Shown in pieces: positions 8,304 to 58,284 of a DNA stretch of 64,000 bases. The translations under genes were made by a program, and so were the position numbers. The DNA is from Eledone cirrhosa (Eukaryota). Every line of letters starts with the position of its first letter. Within the stretch, counting starts at the first letter, position 1. Location of the stretch: NCBI GenBank assembly GCA_964016885.1, contig OZ024748.1, positions 52,638,001-52,702,000 of the forward strand. The letters are read 5' to 3'. The notes under the pieces were generated by a model. It was given only the letters and a program-made list of their open reading frames with translations, was not told the DNA's origin and did not search any database.

Positions 8304-8641
8304 GGAGGCACATGGCTTAGTGGTTAGAGCATTGGCCTTGCAATCGAAAGGTTGTGAGTTCAATTCTCAGACTGGGCGATGTGTTGTTTCCTTGAGCAAG
8401 ACACTTTATTTCACATTGTTCCAGTTTACTCAGCTGTAGAAATGAGATGCTAGGGACTGGGGTCCCTATCATTCCACTGCAAAGTGGTCGTGGAGGTGCC
8501 ATGGCAAAAAAGCACCCAGTACTCACTGTAAATGAGGTTGGTGTTAAGAAGGGCATCCAGCTGTAGAAATCAAGCCAGAATCAGTTCCTGTCCCACCCTT
8601 GCAAGCAGGGAAAAAGTGGACGTAAAATGAAATGATGATGA
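8304..8641 (+). mobile_element. CORE-type SINE family 1
   Basis: Full-length match to 1462-1799. Confidence 0.9.
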
Positions 8642-9005: not shown

Positions 9006-9621
9006 TTGGGTCACTCTTGAGTGTTACTGGTAAGATGTAACCCAGTACAACCTGTCGCACGGTCGGGTCATCGGTGACGAAACCGGCAACCCCACCAGGT
9101 TTACTTGGTGAAGAGGGTGATTTTGAACACCCTGAAGGACAAAAAACAAAACCTGACAAAGGGCGGAAGAACTCATAAGAGTCAACGACCATCCAAAAGT
9201 ATGTAAATATATATATACACATGTATATATGTATATGTGTATATACATGGGTGCATGTGTATCTATATGCGCGGGAACATAGAAATAGTTGGGCTGGACA
9301 TCCAATCGTGCGGTTAAACCACTGGGAGTGAAGGGCCCCTAGCCTTTGTCAGGGCATTCTTCTAGGAGAAGGCAACTCAGGGAACTGGGATAACTCCGAT
9401 ATAAAACCTGTGGCTCAGTAGTTAACAATGATGTTGGTGTTTTCTTCTTTTCGGGTTATATCTACTGTCGCTTAGAGAGTGGGATTGGCTCAGTGCACAG
9501 TCTTTCCTCACTTCAAAAAATATCTTCACGCACCGGCATTGCATGATAGAATTAATTAATAATTATTAATAATGTTATATCGTGCAATGGCCATACTCGA
9601 TAACGAGGGGGCAGCCATCAT
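9006..9621 (+). mobile_element. Non-autonomous RTE-derived element (5'UTR joined to 3' end)
   Basis: RTE-like 5'UTR motif CTAGGAGAAGGCAACTC...TATAAAACC; 3' end TGGCCATACTCGATAACGAGGGGGCAGCCATCA; homologous to 41838-42334 and 42335-42948 on the minus strand. Confidence 0.7.
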
Positions 9622-10815: not shown

Positions 10816-11072
10816 ATATTTTGGTATATATATATATATATATGTTGACAATATTTTCAAAAGATAATGTGGCAAAGCAAAAGAGATGTTACATAAGACT
10901 AAGGAGCATTACATTCAAGGGAGATAATTTCTCGACGTTAATTATCTTTGTAAATTCAAGTATAGATAACAAGCATAGTTTTGTTGTGATAACCAGTTCC
11001 TGGTTGGAACTGGTTAAACTAGAGTTAAACACCTCCACAACATGTGTACCTGTCTCTACCACACCAATTCGG

Positions 11073-11127
11073 ACTGCCTGAAGAGGTCACAGCCAAGGAT
11101 GGCTGTCACTGAAATATATATAGCAAT
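11073..11127 (+). ncRNA. Minimal type I hammerhead ribozyme in a PLE-like element (about 10843-11277)
   Basis: ACTGC-CTGAAGA-GGTCACAGCC(AAGGAT)GGCTGTCACT-GAAA-TATATA-TA-GCAAT; palindromic stem III; the element is flanked by (TA)n and its tail contains GAGTGC. Confidence 0.75.
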
Positions 11128-11367
11128 ACACCTTTAATAAACAAAGCCAGATTTTAAATATTTGACTTACTTTATTTTACATTACTCTGGAGTAACCAAA
11201 CCAACCTGCGTACTTCGTCGAGTGCTCCAATCTGCATACTGAGGTGTCGGTAAACAACCAACATATACTCAAAATTTATATATATATATATATATATATA
11301 CATACATACATATATATATATACATACATATATATTTATATATACATACATATATATGCCTCTTTAC

Positions 11368-29040: not shown

Positions 29041-29089
<49 letters not shown>

Positions 29090-29119
29090 AGATCAAAAGA
29101 TGGTTAAATGAGTTCCATG

Positions 29120-29190
29120 TATTTTATTATGCGCATTTCAAAAACAAACATCATCATGCAATAATATTTGTGTTTTCATCAGATAAAATA
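29120..29190 (-). ncRNA. Type I hammerhead ribozyme (antisense arm of element A)
   Basis: Reverse complement TATTTTAT-CTGATGA-AAACACAAAT...GTTTTT-GAAA-TGCGCA-TA-ATAAAATA. Confidence 0.8.
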
Positions 29191-29307
29191 GGAAGACATG
29201 ATATGAAGGTTAAAAAACACTTGTGGATAGTGCAGTTTTAAATCAACATATGTTGATTTAAAACTGCACTATCCACAAGTGTGTTTAACCTTCATATCAT
29301 GTCTTCC

Positions 29308-29377
29308 TATTTTATCTGATGAAAACCAAATTTTATTGCATGATGATGTTTGTTTTTGAAATGCGCATAATAAAATA
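29308..29377 (+). ncRNA. Type I hammerhead ribozyme (sense arm of element A)
   Basis: Stem I TATTTTAT/ATAAAATA, CTGATGA 29316-29322, stem II AAAC../..GTTT, GAAA 29358-29361, palindromic ATGCGCAT, predicted AUA cleavage after 29369. Confidence 0.82.
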
Positions 29378-29527
29378 CATGGAACTCATTTAACCATCTT
29401 TTGATCTTATATATTATGTATACTCCAGTCCTACAAACTGTAGAGTCCTTCTTATCCGATATCTGCATTGCTTTATTGTACTTCAATAAAACTCACCTCC
29501 TACATATATATATATATATATATATAT

Positions 29528-29829
29528 TGAAGTTTCCGTTGAAAATTGAAAAAGTCATAGGAGTGAAGAGTGCTCTATGTAAGTTACAGAGCTAAATTTA
29601 ATGTATAATAAACAATAAAATATAATTACCTCATTACCAGAGGTTTCCCAAATAGATGTTTCCAGAAAAATCACCCAAGAAAGGCCTTTCTTGGGGAGAT
29701 TTTTCAAATATTTCACTATGTACTAAATTGCCTTGTCTGACGAACGAATGCGGACGTTTCTTTTATTCGTCTTAGTCGGGAAACCTCTGGTAATGAGGTA
29801 ATTATATTGTATTGTTTATTATACATTAT
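29528..29829 (-). mobile_element. Hammerhead element, family B, with about 50-bp inverted arms
   Basis: Arms 29599-29649 / 29778-29829; plus-strand AATTGCCTTGT-CTGACGA...GAAAC-CTCTG-GTA-ATGAGGTAATT (29726-29803; stem II imperfect); tail on minus strand TAGCTCTGT...AGAGCAC. Confidence 0.7.
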
Positions 29830-29840
29830 ATATATATATA

Positions 29841-30143
29841 GGAAGTATTTCCATAGGAAAGGTAAAGGAAAAGAGAGTGCTCTATGTAGGCTACAGAGCT
29901 TTTTAGTTATGTAATAAACAATACGAGATAATTATTTCATTTACCAATGGTTTCTTGAAGACATATTTATATCTGTCTCCAGTCGTCAGAACGAATAAAT
30001 AATGTGGTGTGTTTATCAAATCCATATTTAATAAACACCTTGTTATTTATTCGTTCTGACGACTGAAGGAAGATATAAATATGTGTCTTCAAGAAACCAC
30101 TGGTAAACGAAATAATTATCCCATGTTGTTTATTACATAACTA
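29841..30143 (-). mobile_element. Palindromic hammerhead element, family C (related to B)
   Basis: About 115-bp arms 29905-30143; hammerhead on + (TTCGTT-CTGACGA...GAAAC-CACTG-GTA-AACGAA, 30050-30111) and on - (29936-29995); tail shares GAGTGCTCTATGTA..TACAGAGCT with B. Confidence 0.8.
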
Positions 30144-30398: not shown

Positions 30399-30719
30399 TT
30401 GAAACAAAATGAAAACGAAATTTCATTTCTCACTCTTAGTATGGCACTTACTTAAATGGCACTTACTTAAATGTAAGTATGCATGTATACGTACATACAT
30501 ATATGTATACAGACGTACAGTAGCATGCACATATATATATATATATATACATATATACATACATATGCATACAGGTACACATACATATATGCACGTATCA
30601 GTTTAGCGGCGCTTATTATAACGTCACTTTGTTCGTTTGTAAACAAACTGAACAGCCTGAATTTATGCCATACGGTGTTAAGGCAACCACGTCACCTTTT
30701 TGTTCAACACTGACACAGG

Positions 30720-30764
30720 AACGATGTACTAGTTTCAAGCTTGTTAGCTATCATCAGCACCGTT
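30720..30764 (-). ncRNA. Minimal type I hammerhead ribozyme (45 nt)
   Basis: Reverse complement AACGGTG-CTGATGA-TAGCT(AACA)AGCTT-GAAAC-TA-GTA-CATCGTT; 7-bp stem I, palindromic ACTAGT stem III, GUA site. Confidence 0.85.
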
Positions 30765-30874
30765 TACCCATCTGCCAGACAGTTGAACGTTCGAAAGTAT
30801 ATACATTCCCCATGAAAATCAACGGCTGAGCAGCCTAATTTGCATATTGAGTGAGTTAAATCGGTCATGCATAC

Positions 30875-31573
<699 letters not shown>

Positions 31574-41342: not shown

Positions 41343-41837
41343 TTATATATTTATATATATATATATGAATTTTAGATGCTTATATGAGACAAAGATGAAG
41401 GCATAATTCCATATTGTTTCTGAGACCATAGTAATTTTTATGTGAAGAGTATTACATACATATATACACATATATATAATCATTGAGGTTATATATACTC
41501 ATACTTATACACATATATGTAATCATTGAGGTTATATACACTCATACATACATGCATATATGTAATCATTGAGGTTATATACACTCATACATACATGCAT
41601 ATATGTAATCATTGAGGTTATATACACTCATACATACATGCATATATGTAATCATTGAGGTTATATACACTCATACATATACACATATATGTAATCATTG
41701 AGGTTATATACACTTAAACATATATGCATATATGTAATCATTGAGGTTATATACACTCAAACATACATGCATATATGTAATCACTGAGGCTATATACACT
41801 CATACATACATGCATATATGTAATCATTGAGTCTATA

Positions 41838-43855: not shown

Positions 43856-43858
<3 letters not shown>

Positions 43859-43980
43859 GGTGGTCTAAATGTCGCGATACATTAAAAAAATAATTATGTT
43901 TTATAAGAAACAATGTATTCAAAATAAATAAATATGGAAAGTTAAACATTTCCTATGTATTGCAATTTTTGGGCCACCCT
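43856..43980. mobile_element. Tc1/mariner-type MITE
   Basis: GGTGGTCTAAATGTCGCGATACAT ... ATGTATTGCAATTTTTGGGCCACC TIRs; related copy at 52957-53080. Confidence 0.7.
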
Positions 43981-44093
43981 ATCATTGGGAGGACTGCTGG
44001 ATTTTCTAATCTACCAGTCTCTTCTTAGCGCTGAGGGAGACCATCACCATTCTATTAATGTTGATATAATTCTTATATCGATATTATTTGGGC

Positions 44094-44141
44094 ATCCACT
44101 GATGAGTTTATAAGAGCCCGCTTGTGTATAAAACTATGGAT
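44094..44141 (+). ncRNA. Degenerate hammerhead-like motif
   Basis: ATCCA-CTGATGA-...-AAAAC-TA-TGGAT; the GAAA G and part of stem III are lost. Confidence 0.4.
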
Positions 44142-44246
44142 TATATACAAGTTTCTACATAACCTGGAAATTATTTATCCCAAATTATCCCCTGTGATTG
44201 TTTCATGTGTTTATTTTAAATATATATATGTCAATCAATTTCTAGT

Positions 44247-44284
<38 letters not shown>

Positions 44285-44294
<10 letters not shown>

Positions 44295-44472
44295 AGATCA
44301 AAAGATAGTTAAGTATTTTATTATGCGCATTTCAAAAACAAATATCATCATGGGATGATATCTGCGTTCTCATCAGATAAAATAGGGAGACATGATATGA
44401 AGCTTAAAAAACACTTGTGAATAGTGAAGTTTTAAATAAATTGCTTTATTGTGCTACAGTAAAACTCACCTC
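44285..44472. mobile_element. Family A hammerhead element, collapsed to one arm plus the end of the tail
   Basis: Left arm (TATTTTATTATGCGCATTTC...TCATCAGATAAAATA) joined directly to TTGCTTTATTGTGCTACAGTAAAACTCACCTC. Confidence 0.8.
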
Positions 44473-44477
44473 ATTTT

Positions 44478-44722
44478 CATCATCATCATTTCATTTACAG
44501 TGAGTGCTGGGTGCTTTTTTGCCGTGGCACCTACACGACCACTTTGCAGTGGAATGATAGGGACGCTAGTCCCTATCATCTCATTTCTACAGCTGAGTAA
44601 ACTGGAGCAATGTGAAATAAAGTGTCTTGCTCAAGGAAACAACACATCACCCGGTCTGAGAATTGAACTCACAACCTTTCGATTGCAAGGCCAATGCTCT
44701 AACCACTAAGCCATGTGCCTCC
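44478..44722 (-). mobile_element. CORE-type SINE family 1 with shortened tail
   Basis: Reverse complement of the family 1 head and core. Confidence 0.88.
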
Positions 44723-46979: not shown

Positions 46980-47224
46980 AAATGTTGGTGACTGTTATAG
47001 TTAATTGTTTCTACTTTTGGCACAAGGCCAGCAAATACCTAGTGCATTACTGGTACTTTATTTTATTGACCCCATAAGGAACAAAGGCAAAGTTAACCTC
47101 AACGGGATTTGCTTTGCCTTTCATCCTTACGGGATCGATAAAATAAAGTACCAGTAATGCAGTGAGTAATTGCTGGCCTTGTGCCAAAAGTAGAAACAAT
47201 TAACTATAACAGCCACCAACATTT
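46980..47224. repeat. Inverted duplication of a SINE family 2 3' half plus flank
   Basis: About 113-bp arms with an about 18-bp spacer; the arms include non-SINE AAATGTTGGTGACTGTTATAG. Confidence 0.9.
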
Positions 47225-52309: not shown

Positions 52310-52956
52310 CAAAGAGAGAGAAAGAGAGAAAGAGAGAAATAGAGAGCCAAATAGAGAGGGAGTGAGAGAAAGTGAGAGGTAAAGATATAGTAAGAAGGGA
52401 GGTACAACAATGGCTTAACTTTCAGCCAGTTTTCTTCACAGTCCAGTTTCAATTTTATTCCATAATTTGAAACCATTTACATTTCATTTTTAATGCTAAA
52501 TTCTCTGATAAAATAAGGCTTCATGCCAAGATAAAGCGAAAGACAGAAGACTGATTCTTGTGTATTATTCTCCACAGCTACACTAAGTATGATATCATGC
52601 TATATATATAAATATAAAGAAATATGTTTTAATTTTAAAATAAGATACAATCAAACATGAGTTCTTTTTTTCAATGAAAGATAAAGAGAAAGGCGAAATA
52701 TAATGGCTGCCAAGAAGTATTACAAGTATTAGTAATACACGTGTTAGAGAGAACATATAATATAATATGAATAATCACAGTTGTAACAGTTATAAAATAC
52801 ATTTGTGTCACAACAGTTCCAACCATTAATGGTGACGGTCACAAACTTATTTGGATATCATATCTACAATGCAGCTAACTATAAATAATAGTTGAACTAT
52901 ATATAGTTATCTGCTTTGTAGCAGTTTAAAACACACACAAAAAAAAAGCATATATA

Positions 52957-53080
52957 CAAGGTGTCCCAAAAGTCACAATACATAAAAAAAATAATTATGT
53001 TTTATAAAAAAACAATTTATTCAAAATAAATAAATATAAAACATAATTATTTTTTTATGTATCGCAACTTTTGGGCCACC
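52957..53080. mobile_element. Tc1/mariner-type MITE
   Basis: GGTGTCCCAAAAGTCACAATACATAAAAAAAATAATTATGTTTTATA ... TATAAAACATAATTATTTTTTTATGTATCGCAACTTTTGGGCCACC. Confidence 0.75.
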
Positions 53081-53100
53081 ATATATATATATATATATAA

Positions 53101-53535
53101 TATATAATATATAAGATTAAAAGATGGTTAAAAGAGCTCCATGTATTTTATTATGCCCATTTCTAAAACAAATATCATCATGCAATAACATTTGCATTTT
53201 CGTCAGATAAAATAGGGAGACATGATATGAAGTTTAAAACACACTTGTGAATAGTGCAGTTTTAAATCAACATATATATGATATGTTGATTTAAAACTGC
53301 ACTATTCACAAGTGTGTTTTAACCTTCATATCATGTCTCCCTATTTTATCTGACGAAAACACAAATGTTATTGCATGATGATATTTGTTTTTGAAATGTG
53401 CATAATAAAATACATGGAACTCTTTTAACCATCTTTTGATCTTATATATTATTTATACTCCAGTCCTACAAACTGTAGAGTGCTACTTATCCGATATCTG
53501 CATTGCTTTATTGTACTACAATAAAACTCACCTCC

Positions 53536-53538
<3 letters not shown>
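53101..53538 (+). mobile_element. Palindromic hammerhead element, family A, second full copy
   Basis: Same arms, centre and tail as 29081-29504; plus-strand hammerhead 53342-53412 (CTGACGA...GAAA-TGTGCA-TA). Confidence 0.85.
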
Positions 53539-53574
<36 letters not shown>

Positions 53575-53581
<7 letters not shown>

Positions 53582-53958
53582 TTCAAAATATTAATAAATA
53601 TAGACATTCATGTGATCAAATATATTTTATTATATATATTTCAGAGGTACTGTGCTGTTTCCTCAGTACGTCCTCATCAGATAAAATAAATTGAAGTGTT
53701 ACATACCTCAACTATGCTCAGCACAGTTGAGGTATGTCAGACATCAATTTATTTTACTGCTGAGGACGTACTGAGGAAACAGCACATATCTCTGAAATAT
53801 ATATAATAAAATATATATTTTGATTATGCAAATATTTTTCATTTTTAACATTTTGAATAATATTAAAAACTCCAGGAAAACTTCACAGTTGAGTGCTTCT
53901 AATCTATTGTTAAATTGCATTCGTTGAGTAATCAACAAACCATACTAATCTTTGGTCA
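53575..53958 (+). mobile_element. Palindromic hammerhead element, family G
   Basis: Arms about 53575-53865; intact hammerhead on - (53623-53688: TATTTTAT-CTGATGA-GGACGTACTG..CAGTACCTCT-GAAA-TATATA-TA-ATAAAATA); the + arm core is mutated to CTGCTGA; tail AACTCCAG...GAGTGC. Confidence 0.8.
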
Positions 53959-53974
53959 TATATATATATATAGG

Positions 53975-54173
53975 TATATAATATTTAATATAGAAATGGC
54001 TTTTACAGGACTAGAACTGTTTCTTTCAAAGGAAATAATCAAGGGCTTTCCTGATGATTTCTTTTGAATGAAACAGTTCTAGTCCTGTAAAAGCTATTTC
54101 TATATTAAATATTGTATATACTCTACTATGTATTGAGTACCTTATTTACTGTGGCTATCCCCGATTAAACCCA

Positions 54174-54176
<3 letters not shown>
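53975..54176 (+). mobile_element. Palindromic hammerhead element, family H
   Basis: About 68-bp arms 53975-54120; CTGATGA 54051-54057, GAAAC 54070-54074, GTC 54082-54084; 5' strand of stem I partly deleted; tail TACTC...GAGTAC. Confidence 0.7.
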
Positions 54177-54213
<37 letters not shown>

Positions 54214-54216
<3 letters not shown>

Positions 54217-54348
54217 GGAGGAGGTATTGTAAGGAACCAGATGGACCATAATGCACCAGAGTACTCAATACTTAGGGTAGTCTAGACTAGTCCAAAAATA
54301 GCCGTCGAAATGGCTTCAGCTCTGCTGTCGGGGTTATATATTTTCCTA
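54214..54348 (-). mobile_element. Truncated hammerhead-element tail
   Basis: Reverse complement begins GAAAATATATAA, contains TACCCTAAGTATTGAGTAC and ends CCTCCTCCA against (TA)n. Confidence 0.45.
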
Positions 54349-54410
54349 TATATATCATCATCATCATCATCAACGTTTAACGTCCGTGTTCCACGCTTGC
54401 ATGGGTTTGG

Positions 54411-54486
<76 letters not shown>

Positions 54487-54809
54487 TGGATGCACTTCTT
54501 AATGGCAACCACATTGACAGTGTGTGGTGGGTGATTTTTGCCGTGTCTTTTACACATCCACTTTACAGTATGGGCTGGGTGCTTTTTGCCGTGTCTTTTA
54601 CACATCCACTTTACAGTGTATATATACACACACACATGCATACATAAAGTATACATACATACATATATATATATACACACACACACATAAATAGTTTCCT
54701 TACAAAAAAATATTTTTCTTTGGCAGCAAGGCTACCCATATGTTTATTGTATATAAACGTATTATATATGTCTTCAAATACACCTCTCTCTTTGTGTGTG
54801 TGTGCATCT

Positions 54810-55230
54810 GTCTTAGAGACTTTATGGAGTTATAAATTAATATTGATTGCTCCATCAGTGTTGAGCTGACTTAGACGGTTTTGGTTGTTGCTTCCAGCAT
54901 CAATGTAAGCATGTCGTATTATCCGAATATGTTAAGTAGGAAATATTCATACAGTAATTCAGCATTGCAACATATGATCTAGCAACGAAATGGTATGCAT
55001 ATATGATACATTTTCAACTTGTCTCCTTATTTCTAAGAATAATTCACCCTGATGAAGGAATTTTAATTCTTCCTATATTAGTTATTTCAATGTCTTGGAA
55101 TTCCTGACGTTGTATCTTGAGTTCAAAAAACCATGGTTGGGATATTATATAAGTTGAAGCCAACCTCTTCTTTTAGCCGATTTGACTTATATCTCCCCAA
55201 AATGGGATTTTGGTTTAAGTTTAATATAAT
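54810..55230 (+). mobile_element. Degenerate Penelope-like (Neptune-type) 3' end
   Basis: 54813-54869 translates LETLWSYKLILIAPSVLS*, resembling the E..WI.KL....P.GLN end of Neptune GIY-YIG; downstream decayed hammerhead CTGATGA-AGGAATT...AATTCCT-GAC (55049-55114). Confidence 0.5.
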
Positions 55231-55240
55231 ATATATATAT

Positions 55241-55525
55241 CCAGGGAGTGTAACATGGAGTTACTGTAGGTTCACCAGGGTGAGCACTCGATGTTTAGGT
55301 TCACTTCAGTGTCCAGGTGTAGAGCTAGACAGAGTGTATTATAGTGAAATAAGATAACAAGGACGATTGGTTATCGATCTGACCCGACTCTGTAATCCGC
55401 GGCTCGCCAGTCGGGTCAGATTGATACAGATTGAAACATGAGCTGATCAGTGGCGAAACACGCATCACCAACCAATAAACATAATGAAGGAGTAACCAAT
55501 CGTCCTTGTTATCGTATTTCACTAT
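55241..55525 (-). mobile_element. Degenerate inverted-arm element related to B/C
   Basis: 34-bp arms TATAGTGAAATAAGATAACAAGGACGATTGGTTA / reverse; internal 17-bp stem; tail TAGCTCT...GAGTGCTC on the minus strand; (TA)n flanks. Confidence 0.55.
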
Positions 55526-55795
55526 ATATATATATATATACACACACACACTCATACATACACACACATATATATAATATAAGCATGTACTGCACCAAGA
55601 AAAATATAGACTTCGGCAAGAAAGGAGATAACCTATATTTAATCTCCGATCTCTCACCACATTTGCATCACATTGTTTGTACTGGAATATAAGCATGTAT
55701 GTATGTATGTTTATATATATATATATCATCATCATCATTTTACGTCCGCTTTTCCCTGCTTGCAAGGGTGATATATATATATATATATATATATC

Positions 55796-57360
55796 TGGTG
55801 GGCTCTTAGAAAACTAGGTGTTGATGAATGGCTTGTGAGAGCTATACAAGCCATGTATAAAGAAACAGTGAGCAAGGTTAGAATTAACAACGAATATAGT
55901 GAAGAGTTTAGTATAAAAGTTGGTGTTCATCAGGGCTCTGTTCTTAGCCCCCTACTATTTATTATTGCCCTCCAGGCTATAACAGTGGAGTTCAAGACCA
56001 GCTGCCCATGGGAACTCCTATACGCAGATGATCTAACGCTCATAGCTGAATCAATGGCCGAGCTAGAGAAGAAATTCCAAACATGGAAGCACGGCCTAGA
56101 ATCAAAAGGCCTTAAAATTAACCTGGCTAAGACTAAAGTTCTAGTTTGTAAGAAAGAAAATAAGGCGGCGGTCCCCTCCGGGAAGTGGCCATGCGCAGAG
56201 TGTAGGAAAGGCGTAGGTAGAAATTCCATTTTGTGTCCCAAATGCAAAGTTTGGGTTCATAAAAGATGTAGTGGGATCACAGGTAAGCTAACTAAGAACA
56301 TAGATTTTACATGTGGCCGGTGTTCTGGGGCAATAAGTAGCAGCAAGTGCCCACAAAATACTAGCTCTTTCAACTGCGCAGAGGGCTCTATAGAAATAGC
56401 GGACAGCTTCTGTTACCTGGGTGACAAAATCAGCAGTGGGGGAGGGTGCTCTGAAAGTACAGTAGCTAGAGTCAGAACTGGGTGGAAAAAGTTCAGAGAG
56501 CTTATACCACTATTAGCCGCTAAAGGGTTCTCCCTAAAAATGAAAGGCAGGTTGTACGATGCCTGCATACGAACAGCAATGTTGCATGGCAGTGAGACCT
56601 GGGCATTGTGTGCAGAGGATATACGCAGACTAGAGAGAAACGAAGCTTGCATGCTCCGCTGGATGTGTAATAGTAATATACGTGAACGACAAAGCATAAA
56701 CGAACTAAGGAAAAAAATTAGAAATAAGAGGGATCAGATGTTGTTTACTCGAGAGAAGGCTACGTTGGTATGGTCACGTGATGCGCATGAAGGACGATAG
56801 CTGTATAACAAAGTGCAGGGCAATAAAGATAGACGGTAGCCACGGAATAGGCAGACCCAGAAAAACCTGGGACGAGCTGATAAACTCCGACCTCACACAC
56901 TTACACCTCACCAAGACAATGTCACTGGACCGAGACCTTTGGCGGTACTCAGTAATAGAGAAGACCCGCCTTACCTAAATACAAAGTAAAACCTACTACA
57001 GTCAGTAGGCATCTCTCACAAAATACACCCCCGTCCCACCACCCCCACCCCATCCACACCGCCCCCTTCTATGTAAAGTTATGTTGGTGCCACACCATCC
57101 AGGCCGAAACAAATGAGATCGTGTAGGTGTCACGACAAAAAAACACACAGTCCACGCTGTAATGTGGCCGTGTAGGCAACACGGTAAAAACCTCCCAGAC
57201 CCACACTGTAAATGTGGTTGGTGTTAGGAAGGGCATCCAACTGTAGAAAACCTGCCAGACAGTCCTATGCGAGCAAGACAATCACTCTTGCCTCAAGTGG
57301 GAAAACCCCCGTCCAAACCCATGCAAGCGTGGAACACGGACGTTAAACGTTGATGATGAT
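55796..57360 (+). mobile_element. RTE-clade LINE, 5'-truncated, with reverse transcriptase C-terminal half
   Basis: GVHQGSVLSPLLF, LLYADDL, GLKINLAKTK, FCYLG, MLHGSETW motifs; 3'UTR and (GAT)n tail. Confidence 0.95.
55835..56978 (+). pseudogene. RTE ORF remnant (RT + PHD-like finger) with +1 frameshift near 56711-56717
   Basis: GG(A)7TT here versus GGG(A)5TT in the 22358 and 51596 copies; the C-terminus resumes in ORF 56778-56978. Confidence 0.9.
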
Positions 57361-57754
57361 ATATATATATTGAAAACAAAGTGGTCTCACATTAAGGTCT
57401 TTATACATTCTGCCATAGAGTGTTGATTTTGGAACCTTCCCCAGTAAAACATGAATCTTACATTTTCCTATGGGAATCACCAATAATTCTGAGGAAAGTT
57501 ATTTCCATAGAGAAAATACTGTGAACTGTAACAGAAAGGTATTTATTTCACTAATTTTATATTTTATTTTCCTTTTTCTTTTGTTATTTGATAATCTACT
57601 CGTTTGCTATGTGACAATATAATTGCTCTTGTTCAAAATCATCATCATCTATAAAGCAAAAGTTTGCCAAAAATTTGTTGCTACTTTCTTCAATCTTTAT
57701 AATTCTGAGGAAAATAACAGCTTTGGCTATATTATATTGAAATTATATAATATA

Positions 57755-57924
57755 CCATATTCCCTGGCGCCGAAGACACTTTGTCCTCGAGGATGCACCC
57801 TAACTTTGAAAACCAAAAATTTGAAAATAAAAATAATAAACAACCTTCAGCCTCCAGGATGCACGGTGGATTTTTGAGACTTATTTTAGGAAAAAAGTAG
57901 CATCTTCGATGCTGGGTAATACGG
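57755..57924. mobile_element. pogo/Tigger-type MITE with TA target
   Basis: TA|CCATATTCCCTGGCGCCGAAGAC ... ATCTTCGATGCTGGGTAATACGG|TA. Confidence 0.7.
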
Positions 57925-58284
57925 TAACAGCAGCAGCTTGATAATGAATGTTGTCTGGTTACATAAGCCGAGTTAAGAGGGAGGGTGATCCGTATTTGAT
58001 TTGCCGAATTTGGAGGGTGAGTAAGGTTTAGTTTGGCAGGAGTCACAAGTACAGGTTGGTGTCTGGCTTATGGTATTTGTTGAGTGCTTGTAGAATAGTA
58101 GTTGATGCAATAACAGTCTATTTATGTTTATATTGATTGATTGACAAGATCCCAGACCTCGCTTACTTACTGTTAAATACAATACAATAAAAAAACAAGA
58201 ACTATCAAATGCTGAACACTTGAAGCCCAATTCAGATGTTGGTCTTTTGGTTTTTTAGTAAAGGGACTGAAAGCAGAGAATGTA

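Follow-up and report, generated by a model that had tools for sequence, protein, structure and literature searches.

We analysed a window of 64,000 nt from Eledone cirrhosa (assembly GCA_964016885.1, contig OZ024748.1, positions 52,638,001-52,702,000; all coordinates below are positions in this stretch), which contains series of short inverted elements set between runs of (TA)n. The original prediction had seen here five hammerhead/hairpin elements, G to K, forming with a copy of family A one cluster of about 2.4 kb. Four of the five (G, H, I and K) are real, as is A, and J is unconfirmed. The features of this region and of two other places in the window are the following.

53100-53537, + strand: element A, with a tail-less arm (53100-53275, - strand), a tailed arm (53281-53456, + strand) and a tail (53457-53537)
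53350 (+ strand) and 53206 (- strand): complete type I hammerheads of A, from the descriptor search
53457-53483: tail stem of A
53543-53578: (TA)n spacer between A and G, 36 nt
about 53579-53957, + strand: element G, a head-to-head fold-back with a one-sided tail ending at 53957
53619-53692, - strand: type I hammerhead of G, intact core 53680-53674, cleavage predicted after 53631 (descriptor)
53869-53896, + strand: tail stem of G, ACUC-CAG..CAG-UU-GAGU-GC
53958-53972: (TA)n spacer between G and H, 15 nt
53975-54175, + strand: element H, with fold-back 53975-54041/54052-54118, tail stem 54120-54140 and tail ending at 54175
54176-54214: (TA)n spacer between H and I, 39 nt
54215-54281, - strand: tail piece of element I, cut off inside the tail stem, with UU-GAGUAC at 54268-54261
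54282-54346, + strand: tail-less arm of I, of the same family as the tail piece, with a head-to-head joint without overlap
54355-54411 and 54484-54618 (region 54347-54618), - strand: SINE/LINE-tail fragments outside the element set, separated by a 73-nt TA tract
54810-55230, + strand: J, of unconfirmed element status, with a lone CUGAUGA at 55049-55055
55241-55526, - strand: element K, with tail 55241-55340 (- strand), tail stem 55335-55284, short tailed arm 55341-55373 and inner hairpin 55374-55426
29083-30141: second array, A29 (29083-29503), C (29528-29826) and B (29841-30141), with TA-only spacers
44290-44478, - strand: A44, a family A copy in which the tail keeps only its last ~35 nt, joined to a tail-less arm with a hammerhead

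A, G, H and I are contiguous (53100-54346) and separated by TA alone. K stands apart from them, beyond some 890 nt that comprise SINE/LINE-tail fragments, microsatellite and J, and the presumed single cluster falls into two parts. A MITE-like element and SINE tails adjoin the same TA tract as the array elements. BLAST identifies relatives of A at 29083-29503 and 44290-44478, and the second array has five hammerhead descriptor matches and tail stems with GCUC/GAGC. Each of the ten first-tier elements has a TA tract no more than 15 nt away, and every junction in both arrays is TA, none falling inside element sequence. Two of the original observations hold: (TA)n flanks G, H, I and K, and the elements have little primary sequence in common, with no cross-match among the six in BLAST searches against the window and a sole cross-family match, 20 nt long, of G to the A copy at 44.4 kb (E 0.006).

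The elements are head-to-head inverted copies with variable inversion centres, as seen by sequence in A, G, H and K and by opposite-strand joints in I. Substitutions separate the arms of G (about 53575-53718 and 53722-53866) at 12.9% and those of H at 7.5%, and the differences within A (8/176) and G (18/139) are unequal (Fisher P 0.012). Arm divergence is also unequal within each array as a whole (chi-square P 0.025 for A, G and H; 0.020 for A29, B and C), and in the two full copies of A the arms group by element at five sites and by side at none. Gene conversion could instead account for arm identity, and the arms of G may come from two subfamilies. The inverted arms of K span only 33 nt (55341-55373/55493-55526; fold z = -6.9), its longer tail-less arm reaching 55526 on the + strand. 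The arms of I are joined without overlap, which explains why it has neither hairpin nor hammerhead core (fold z = 0.04). The lack of overlap between the arms of I, and likewise in A44, is better explained by two cDNAs primed independently than by fold-back self-priming.

A descriptor requiring the hammerhead core and helices I, II and III had 11 matches in the window, against a mean of 0.9 and a maximum of 4 in 40 local shuffles. Complete hammerheads are present in A, G, B, C, A44 and D30, and they point outward in both arms. The presence of a hammerhead in each of G to K is not upheld: the motif is complete only in G, whose copy in the + arm at 53757 carries A6C; H has a core (CUGAUGA..GAAA..GUC, at 54051-54057 with GAAA at 54070-54073) without helix I; K has a broken core (CUGAUCA, G8C, at 55443-55449), also without helix I; and I and J have none. 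J has only its lone CUGAUGA, for which the chance is about 0.2 in 421 nt; it lacks inverted arms, a tail element and a GAAA following helix II, its fold z is -1.7, and it is at best a decayed relic. Judging from their sequence, the hammerheads of A and G are predicted self-cleaving ribozymes of type I; that of G, folded alone, is not the lowest-energy fold. Helix III is a 4-bp palindrome in A, B, C and H, as in Hydra-clade hammerheads, and the canonical hammerheads of A, G, B and C agree with the published Hydra ones (compared by eye). The Rfam hammerhead families had no match at gathering score in the window and none at E<=10 in 52900-58200. At gathering score the whole window gave only the tRNA-like head of a SINE at 8308, and 64 weak Rfam matches in 52.9-58.2 kb were discarded as generic hairpins, none of them a ribozyme. 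Among metagenomes, the H pattern had no match, and the three loci matching the A/G pattern were one sequence inside a 742-aa bacterial-type frame, unlike the window, which we attribute to chance.

The rod-like fold and the hammerhead on each strand in A, G and B might suggest that the elements were copied into the genome from rod RNAs of retrozyme or viroid type, carrying hammerheads on both polarities, and animal retrozymes do derive from the pLTRs of Penelope-like elements (PLEs), according to a preprint (bioRxiv 10.64898/2026.07.22.740005). This origin is very improbable here. The two hammerheads are the same sequence inverted, the window has no head-to-tail tandem units, many copies lack one or both cores, and the elements end at the tail stem and the tail end, not at cleavage sites.

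All fold-backs have one-sided tails of 56-95 nt, and a tail on one end only is found in A, G, H, I, K, B and C. The first feature of every tail is a bulged stem, RCUC-helix-UN-GAGYRC, which follows the inverted arm at a distance of 0-10 nt and lies 69-112 nt from the hammerhead core. A stem start within 10 nt of the arm end is seen in six of the six tailed fold-backs (A at 53 kb, G, H, K, C and B), compared with 0.11% of all positions. The inner helix was no part of the pattern first searched for. Over nine elements it is paired in 25 of 27 cells, against 3-15 of 27 when slid and a mean of 16.4 after column shuffling (0 of 100,000 shuffles reached 25); in the other four pattern matches, 4 of 12 cells are paired. 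Pairs were counted at fixed offsets, and MAFFT alignments of the tails misplace the stem. The single mismatch in the stem of G, at 53887 (A>T), is T in most reads of the family, which restores the helix. The first, loose pattern was not above chance (13 matches; shuffle mean 6.6, maximum 14), and the refined one has 9 matches against 0.44 by shuffle (maximum 3 in 200), with the caveats that it was derived from the elements on which it was scored and that the stems of B and C are nearly identical, so that rows are not independent. Plain minimum-free-energy folding recovers the outer stem in only 6 of 11 tails. GAG and the last C are invariant in nine of nine elements; we rejected GAGYRC as a coding motif (I/V-E-C/Y/H), its frames being closed. 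Compared by eye, the stem is complete in three of six published Hydra consensus sequences (coral, sea cucumber) and nearly so in a fourth. Hydra-1_Amil matches it only partly, the published Octopus Hydra consensus ends before the tail, and a comparable fold lies about 430 nt from the end of one bivalve Naiad. The published 3' ends of Octopus Naiads look unrelated to our elements, again by eye.

These tails bear on another reading, in which we would have DNA transposons of MITE-like or fold-back type, inserting into TA microsatellites in the manner of SaTar and MuTAnT in plants, with incidental hammerhead matches. Long inverted arms, the lack of a coding frame, TA flanks and unnested arrays like those of SaTar all fit it. 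We nevertheless find it hardly credible, because the tails are one-sided, the centres vary, the arms group by element (5:0), I and A44 are non-overlapping, hammerheads are far above chance, and the tail stem is shared with some published PLEs.

We consider it highly probable that G, H, I, K and A are short 5'-truncated 3' ends (pLTR and tail) of different PLE families, the Hydra clade being the likeliest, or else non-autonomous derivatives of such families, inserted by head-to-head joining of two cDNAs in TA. The elements as such, the hammerheads, the inversions and the TA preference are known PLE traits. An inverted 5'-truncated copy, a one-sided tail and a hammerhead in the pLTR belong to the published PLE anatomy (PMC8557442; PMC3846280), and dual PLE hammerheads lie 100-700 bp apart on opposite strands (PMC4209133). 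Craig et al. 2021 list (TA)n for 26 of 27 families of the Hydra clade, including one from Octopus bimaculoides (PMC8557442). Insertion in (TA)n is not specific to this clade and also occurs in many Naiads. [quoted passage not shown] We found no PLE RT or endonuclease in the elements or in the 12 of 145 window frames scanned, where only the LINE RT at 55772-56797 scored, and the probable clade assignment therefore rests on RNA features. The missing frame is expected in 5'-truncated copies. No open frame crosses hammerhead and tail in the 11 stretches translated.

Insertion would start with a GIY-YIG endonuclease cutting both strands of a (TA)n tract, as published PLE work suggests, and RT would then prime on each target end. 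In the PLE studied in vitro, two internal RT start sites bracket the tail and both target strands are extended (PMC11167929). Here, two positions visible in the elements, the tail end and the point 0-10 nt upstream of the bulged stem, would serve as starts inside the RNA, and the stem itself is a candidate for the signal that makes reverse transcription start internally. The structures suggest that both cDNAs stop early and join head to head, overlapping cDNAs giving the fold-backs (A, G, H) and partly or non-overlapping ones the inversions (K, C, I, A44). With a target that is always TA and never element sequence, later arrivals would stack beside earlier ones, unnested, as in A-G-H-I and A29-C-B, and unequal arm divergence suggests that the members of an array arrived at different times.

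The reads show that A, G, H and I, which lie in the stretch covered by read depth (J and K fall outside it), are separate, dispersed, high-copy families with other flanks elsewhere, and that depth is single-copy over the flank and over G's inner right arm. Summed depth in G is high on the left arm and tail and near single-copy at 53759-53819. Other family A copies end in (TA)n exactly at 53457 (56 contigs), and the H segment 54048-54104 is also abundant in contigs of two other organisms. Behind 54281 of I, 8953 reads continue unlike the window, and the opposite-strand joints 54281->54334 and 54281->54349 occur in two of four runs. The A44-type joint (53270-53273 -> 53501-53502) is found in the X1 contigs, X1 being maybe the source sample and not independent support. 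Some joints of this type are at depth 91-171, against 15 for a single copy, for which reason some inverted units may have been recopied whole. No empty site was seen: runs X7, X8 and X10 have no depth over 52722-52843 and thus showed no orthologous or allelic locus. The joints 52629->52954 and 53980->54347 were dismissed as empty-site signs, since their support is some 20 letters of TA. A target-site duplication would be masked by the (TA)n.

No single read or contig runs across the A-G-H-I array, and its neighbours A, G and H have the same orientation, as might follow from a single event or artefact, whether serial template switching at one break, segmental duplication or mis-assembly across TA tracts. 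We regard this as quite unlikely, given the unequal arm divergence in both arrays, the single-copy depth at the flank and inside G, the TA boundaries proper to each element, and a second array with different members. A single segmental duplication, named in the original prediction as what would refute it, is contradicted by the separate high-copy families seen in reads. Independent repeated insertion into the same (TA)n tract is supported by these families with other flanks, the single-copy flank, the unequal arm divergence, the second array and the clumping of elements.

The two arrays, of four and three members, hold 7 of 10-12 elements over 28-48 TA loci (the counts leave out J and the stretch 43979-44219, and W8 has no TA locus). 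Such clumping exceeds a per-locus null (P 1.5e-5 to 2.7e-3), and against a length-weighted null the excess is marginal by the pair statistic (P 0.013-0.13) and clearer by the G statistic (P 0.0007-0.02), all tests being post hoc, on 10-12 elements of one window. The claim of repeated insertion into hotspots holds for separate insertions into the same (TA)n; a hotspot mechanism is not established.

If the elements are PLE ends, the stacking may simply reflect fixed differences between tracts, an explanation to which we give even chances: old, pure tracts of ~100 nt in tolerant regions would collect insertions, and very long tracts, young or interrupted, would have had little time or be poor substrates. 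With the elements excised, the two array loci have 115-190 nt of TA, in the upper-middle of the window. The long tracts at 12.9-13.3, 35.0-35.9 and 61 kb have, as noted originally, no hammerhead or tail-element match, and two of these empty tracts are impure (77% matches at 35.0 kb, 81% at 12.9 kb). The marginal pair test, and the MITE-like element and SINE tails beside the same tract, point the same way. However, the G test rejects pure length weighting, and a near-pure 300-nt tract at 30.9 kb has only one neighbour. Positive feedback, a stronger form of the original idea, would work through added TA edges or through a palindrome beside (TA)n that forms a cruciform or loosens chromatin and so attracts a further endonuclease cut; it is a serious possibility that we would sooner doubt than accept. 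It fits the concentration of elements in two arrays, a fitted reinforcement of 3-13 targets per insertion (interval above 1 in three of four settings), the emptiness of the 4-5 longest loci (P 0.0007-0.006 under length weighting) and the ability of Poseidon from Anolis (PAc) to cut its own pLTR (PMC11167929). Yet the self-reinforcement first envisaged, in which each insertion adds one target, under-predicts clumping in three of four settings (P 0.003, 0.015 and 0.021; 0.076 in the fourth), all array junctions are in TA and none in element sequence, and fixed tract differences give the same overdispersion, with small numbers and post hoc tests. Fixed differences in age, purity or chromatin are at least as likely as feedback.

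[quoted passage not shown] A joint reading of our results, possible but rather doubtful as a whole, is that the bulged stem is bound by a Hydra-type PLE RT to set internal start sites and was kept from cnidarians to molluscs and echinoderms while the rest of the pLTR diverged. Since the stem is common to many families, one enzyme could move them in trans; each insertion would comprise two separately primed cDNAs, and palindromes in (TA)n would improve the target and yield multi-family arrays. In function the stem would then parallel the positioning elements found in telomerase RNA. With compensatory changes at the presumed inner start site, across divergent families and phyla, it is a concrete target for mutagenesis. 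It also provides a search pattern for Hydra-type ends missed by Rfam, which repeat pipelines may file as MITEs or unknowns. In I and A44 the genome itself offers cases by which two-ended priming can be told apart from fold-back self-priming. The main text of Craig et al. 2021, figures aside, mentions neither the tail stem nor multi-family arrays (0 matches for stem-loop, hairpin or nested; PMC8557442), and the stem appears new in print, outside subscription papers, figures, Repbase/Dfam entries and bioRxiv supplements.

Among known systems, the Hydra clade, as described in Craig et al. 2021 (PMC8557442), shares the (TA)n target, the near-3' hammerhead with a 4-bp palindromic helix III, the inverted 5'-truncated copies, the tail stem in published consensus sequences and a presence in Octopus bimaculoides. 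Features of its protein are RWK and DKT motifs and a CxCX5C linker, with no CCHH. The clade differs in that here there are only non-coding ends of 130-440 nt; these represent six or more families that, judged by eye, do not resemble the one published Octopus consensus, and published PLE tails measure 30-40 bp, against 56-95 nt here. PAc (Frangieh et al. 2024, PMC11167929) also has two internal RT starts bracketing the tail, with a start in a stem-loop ~110 nt after the hammerhead core, to be compared with the 69-112 nt between core and stem in our elements. This stem-loop is AC-rich. PAc DNA targets are AT-rich and cut on both strands, and its hammerhead is dispensable for insertion; unlike our elements, which have no open frame, its ORF starts inside the hammerhead (PMC11167929). 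In the Penelope/Poseidon clade, pLTR and tail carry the first ORF codons, a feature absent here, and the Naiad clade lacks the canonical hammerheads present here.

Metazoan PLEs carry minimal type I hammerheads (Cervera and De la Pena 2014, PMC4209133) that similarly have a palindromic helix III, sequences variable within one genome and opposite-strand pairs from truncated PLEs, but helix I is of 8-12 bp in A and G, where an A-U or G-U pair replaces the usual G10.1-C11.1. Non-LTR retrozymes (bioRxiv 10.64898/2026.07.22.740005) are likewise non-coding, hammerhead-bearing and PLE-derived, but form head-to-tail tandem repeats instead of single head-to-head insertions. Finally, the plant SaTar arrays (Valdes Franco et al. 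2018, PMC5907723) are unnested linear arrays of unrelated small elements, each flanked by microsatellites, often (TA)n. SaTars are Mutator-like DNA transposons, whereas ours are retroelement ends in an animal, and the SaTar/MITE unit, of fixed form with terminal inverted repeats at both ends, is absent here. The likeness lies in array architecture alone, and the arrays described here extend that plant pattern to an animal retroelement.

The right-hand array and its surroundings, all positions in window coordinates, are laid out as follows:

52957-53082, inverted-repeat element of 125 nt, second copy at 43856-43978
53100-53537, element A, long fold-back, tail (one-sided extension past the inverted arms) at right
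53579-53957, element G, long fold-back, tail at right
53975-54175, element H, long fold-back, tail at right
54215-54346, element I, right-hand end of the A-G-H-I run
right of I, two SINE/LINE-tail fragments with a 73-nt TA tract between them, then J
55241-55526, element K, 33-nt arms, tail at left

The spacers A/G, G/H and H/I are TA tracts alone (36, 15 and 39 nt). As originally noted, primary sequence is hardly shared: comparison within the window gave no alignable pair among A, G, H, I, J and K. In the SINE/LINE-tail copy at 54355-54618, some 70 nt of the central part have given way to the 73-nt TA tract, almost equal in length, and 54364-54411 is an inverted, identical 48-nt copy of a LINE end (57312-57359). 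This LINE (55795-57359) is 5'-truncated, contains a reverse transcriptase (RT) and a PHD finger, is inserted at a TA tract, and has at least five related 3' ends within the window. The 125-nt element, which resembles a Tc1/mariner-type MITE, has ends like GGTGTCCCAAAA/TTTTGGGCCACC and TA flanks; its two copies are 82% alike, lack hammerhead and tail, and adjoin a family A copy or sit at most ~310 nt from one. Between the second copy and the family A copy at 44290-44478 (A44), 43979-44219 holds a lone CUGAUGA (44099) and small hairpins. Other fold-backs without hammerhead or tail lie at 46980-47224 (built from a dispersed SINE-like repeat), 9537-9589 and 41718-41821.

A descriptor requiring the hammerhead core and helices I, II and III found 11 matches in the window, where 40 local shuffles averaged 0.9; canonical cores with a helix I score of at least 6 numbered 9, against 0.05. 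No Rfam hammerhead family matched in the window. All 11 matches face outward: two each in A and G, one in A44, one at 30757, and five in a second array at 29083-30141, formed by a family A copy (A29, two), C (one) and B (two). Of the five hammerhead elements originally proposed (G to K), only G meets this descriptor. H has both core boxes and lacks helix I; K also lacks helix I, and its core carries G8C, a change that kills cleavage in PAc (Poseidon from Anolis; text of PMC11167929). I showed neither hammerhead core nor hairpin, and J is not upheld as an element, having one core heptamer (chance expectation P ~0.2) and none of the other traits. The complete hammerhead at 30757 (stretch 30570-30881, reverse strand) adjoins a 300-nt TA tract, lacks the tail stem described below, and belongs perhaps to another clade of Penelope-like retroelements (PLEs). 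Three CUGAGGA heptamers in alike ATAATT contexts (57489 and 57705, forward; 13451, reverse) all fail the descriptor.

Every tail starts with the same bulged stem: RCUC, an inner helix (loop 3-34 nt), a 2-nt bulge starting with U, GAGY and RC. The outer stem ACUC/GAGU is replaced by GCUC/GAGC in B and C. A loose pattern, of which the inner helix is not part, is not above chance (13 matches versus 6.6). The inner helix is paired in 25 of 27 cells across nine elements, with several pair types, against 3-15 when slid one or two places, 16.4 on average in column shuffles, and 4 of 12 cells in the four other loose matches. The refined pattern, defined post hoc and counting the related B and C, has 9 matches versus 0.44 by chance. 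Family reads repair the one stem mismatch of G (53887 A>T) and keep a pair of H as G-U (54125 A>G). The stem starts 0-10 nt past the end of the tail-less arm in all six tailed fold-backs, versus 0.11% of window positions. Further tails occur singly:

8917, tail with bulged stem
11184, tail with bulged stem
50378, reverse strand, tail with bulged stem

The second lies in 10844-11276, between two TA tracts, and carries a hammerhead-like core without helix I at 11078, the stem following 106 nt later.

The elements add new members to a class already known: the texts of PMC8557442, PMC3846280 and PMC4209133 describe PLE insertions with this anatomy, an inverted 5'-truncated copy that has a hammerhead and a tail on one side. 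They likely belong to the Hydra clade, which falls short of proof because no PLE RT was found in the translated elements or in the 12 of 145 window frames scanned. The supplement of PMC8557442 lists (TA)n for 26 of 27 Hydra families, one from Octopus bimaculoides, and the hammerheads of these families share the 4-bp palindromic helix III of ours. By eye, three of the six Hydra consensus sequences there show the tail stem in full (at the 3' end of Hydra-2_Amil and of Hydra-2_Ajap, among the first bases of Hydra-1_Ajap). Hydra-1_Crog has a near-complete stem and Hydra-1_Amil a partial one at most, and Hydra-1_Obim, whose consensus ends ~45 nt past the hammerhead, has none. In the sequences available, six 9-letter probes gave a single hit in the Naiad file, located ~430 nt short of a bivalve element's end, and four in the Chlamys file, all at inner positions. 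Recent PLE activity is reported for Octopus vulgaris (text of PMC13282606).

We compared 52600-54410 (A, G, H and I; J and K lie outside) with 4 of 12 listed sequencing runs at 85% likeness; one run, X1, may itself be the source sample. In X1 the unique flank has a depth of 15-18, with 408 letters free of any difference, and 53759-53819 within G only 22. Summed depth over A, G, H and I is 1e4 to 2e6, which is not a copy number and lies far above single copy. They are thus separate high-copy families in a block that is not itself multi-copy, which argues against a single segmental duplication found elsewhere. Two other organisms are also rich in the hammerhead part of H (54048-54104). Since 56 contigs depart from A at 53457 into TA, other family A copies stop there tail-less. 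All three family A copies switch orientation or end at a near-identical place (53268-53288, 29241-29256, 44440), ~175 nt ahead of the tail stem and at an ATAT palindrome; this could mark where the RNA, or else the PLE terminal repeat (pLTR), has its 5' end. Behind 54281 in I, 8953 reads continue unlike the window, and two runs contain opposite-strand joints from 54281 to 54334 and to 54349. Element I combines a tail piece with a tail-less arm from its own family, joined head to head without overlap; A44 is constructed likewise. In the four runs, no read or contig bridges the whole A-G-H-I array, nor did an empty site appear over 52600-54410.

Each insertion has two kinds of outer end, the inner one beside the conserved stem. 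According to the text of PMC11167929, PAc cuts AT-rich DNA and extends on both strands, two internal RT starts bracket its tail, synthesis starts in a stem-loop, and the hammerhead is dispensable. In our elements, the tail stem would position the RT. Fold-back self-priming, proposed earlier for PLE palindromes (text of PMC3846280), predicts a tail-less arm that is a subset of the tailed one. The tail-less arms of I, A44, K and C, however, have sequence missing from the tailed arm, and a second, separately primed cDNA is therefore needed. Private changes common to both arms group by element at five sites and by side at none (both arms differ from the family at 53240/53316 and 54003/54090), so both arms go back to a single source transcript or underwent conversion later. 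C (29665-29705) and K (55374-55426) each have a separate perfect hairpin where the arms meet, resembling the 5' palindromes described for rotifer pLTRs (text of PMC3846280).

Clustering was assessed post hoc in this one window, with elements excised and 10 (or 12) of them distributed over 28-48 TA loci. Occupied loci hold 4, 3, 1, 1 and 1 elements; the widest merge of loci gives 4, 4. A model in which every locus is equally likely is rejected (P 1.5e-5 to 2.7e-3); weighting by TA length leaves a marginal excess by pair count (P 0.013-0.13) and P 0.0007-0.02 by the G measure, and one extra target per insertion gives P 0.003-0.076. Stacking in this window is real. Arm divergence is unequal within both arrays (P 0.025 and 0.020), which suggests that the elements arrived at different times, unless the arms stem from different subfamilies. 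The repeated insertion envisaged originally thus gains support, but its self-reinforcement by new TA tracts cannot, with post hoc tests, be told apart from fixed differences among tracts.

Overall, the original observation is confirmed in part and its interpretation partly supported. What appears to be new is a multi-family retroelement array and a cross-phylum tail stem: published text, figures, Repbase, Dfam and bioRxiv supplements aside, yielded no report of non-nested PLE arrays in microsatellites and (the PAc GenBank file also aside) no description of the stem. Together they allow the start of PLE reverse transcription to be tested directly. Non-nested arrays in microsatellites have been described for the plant Mutator-like SaTar elements (text of PMC5907723).
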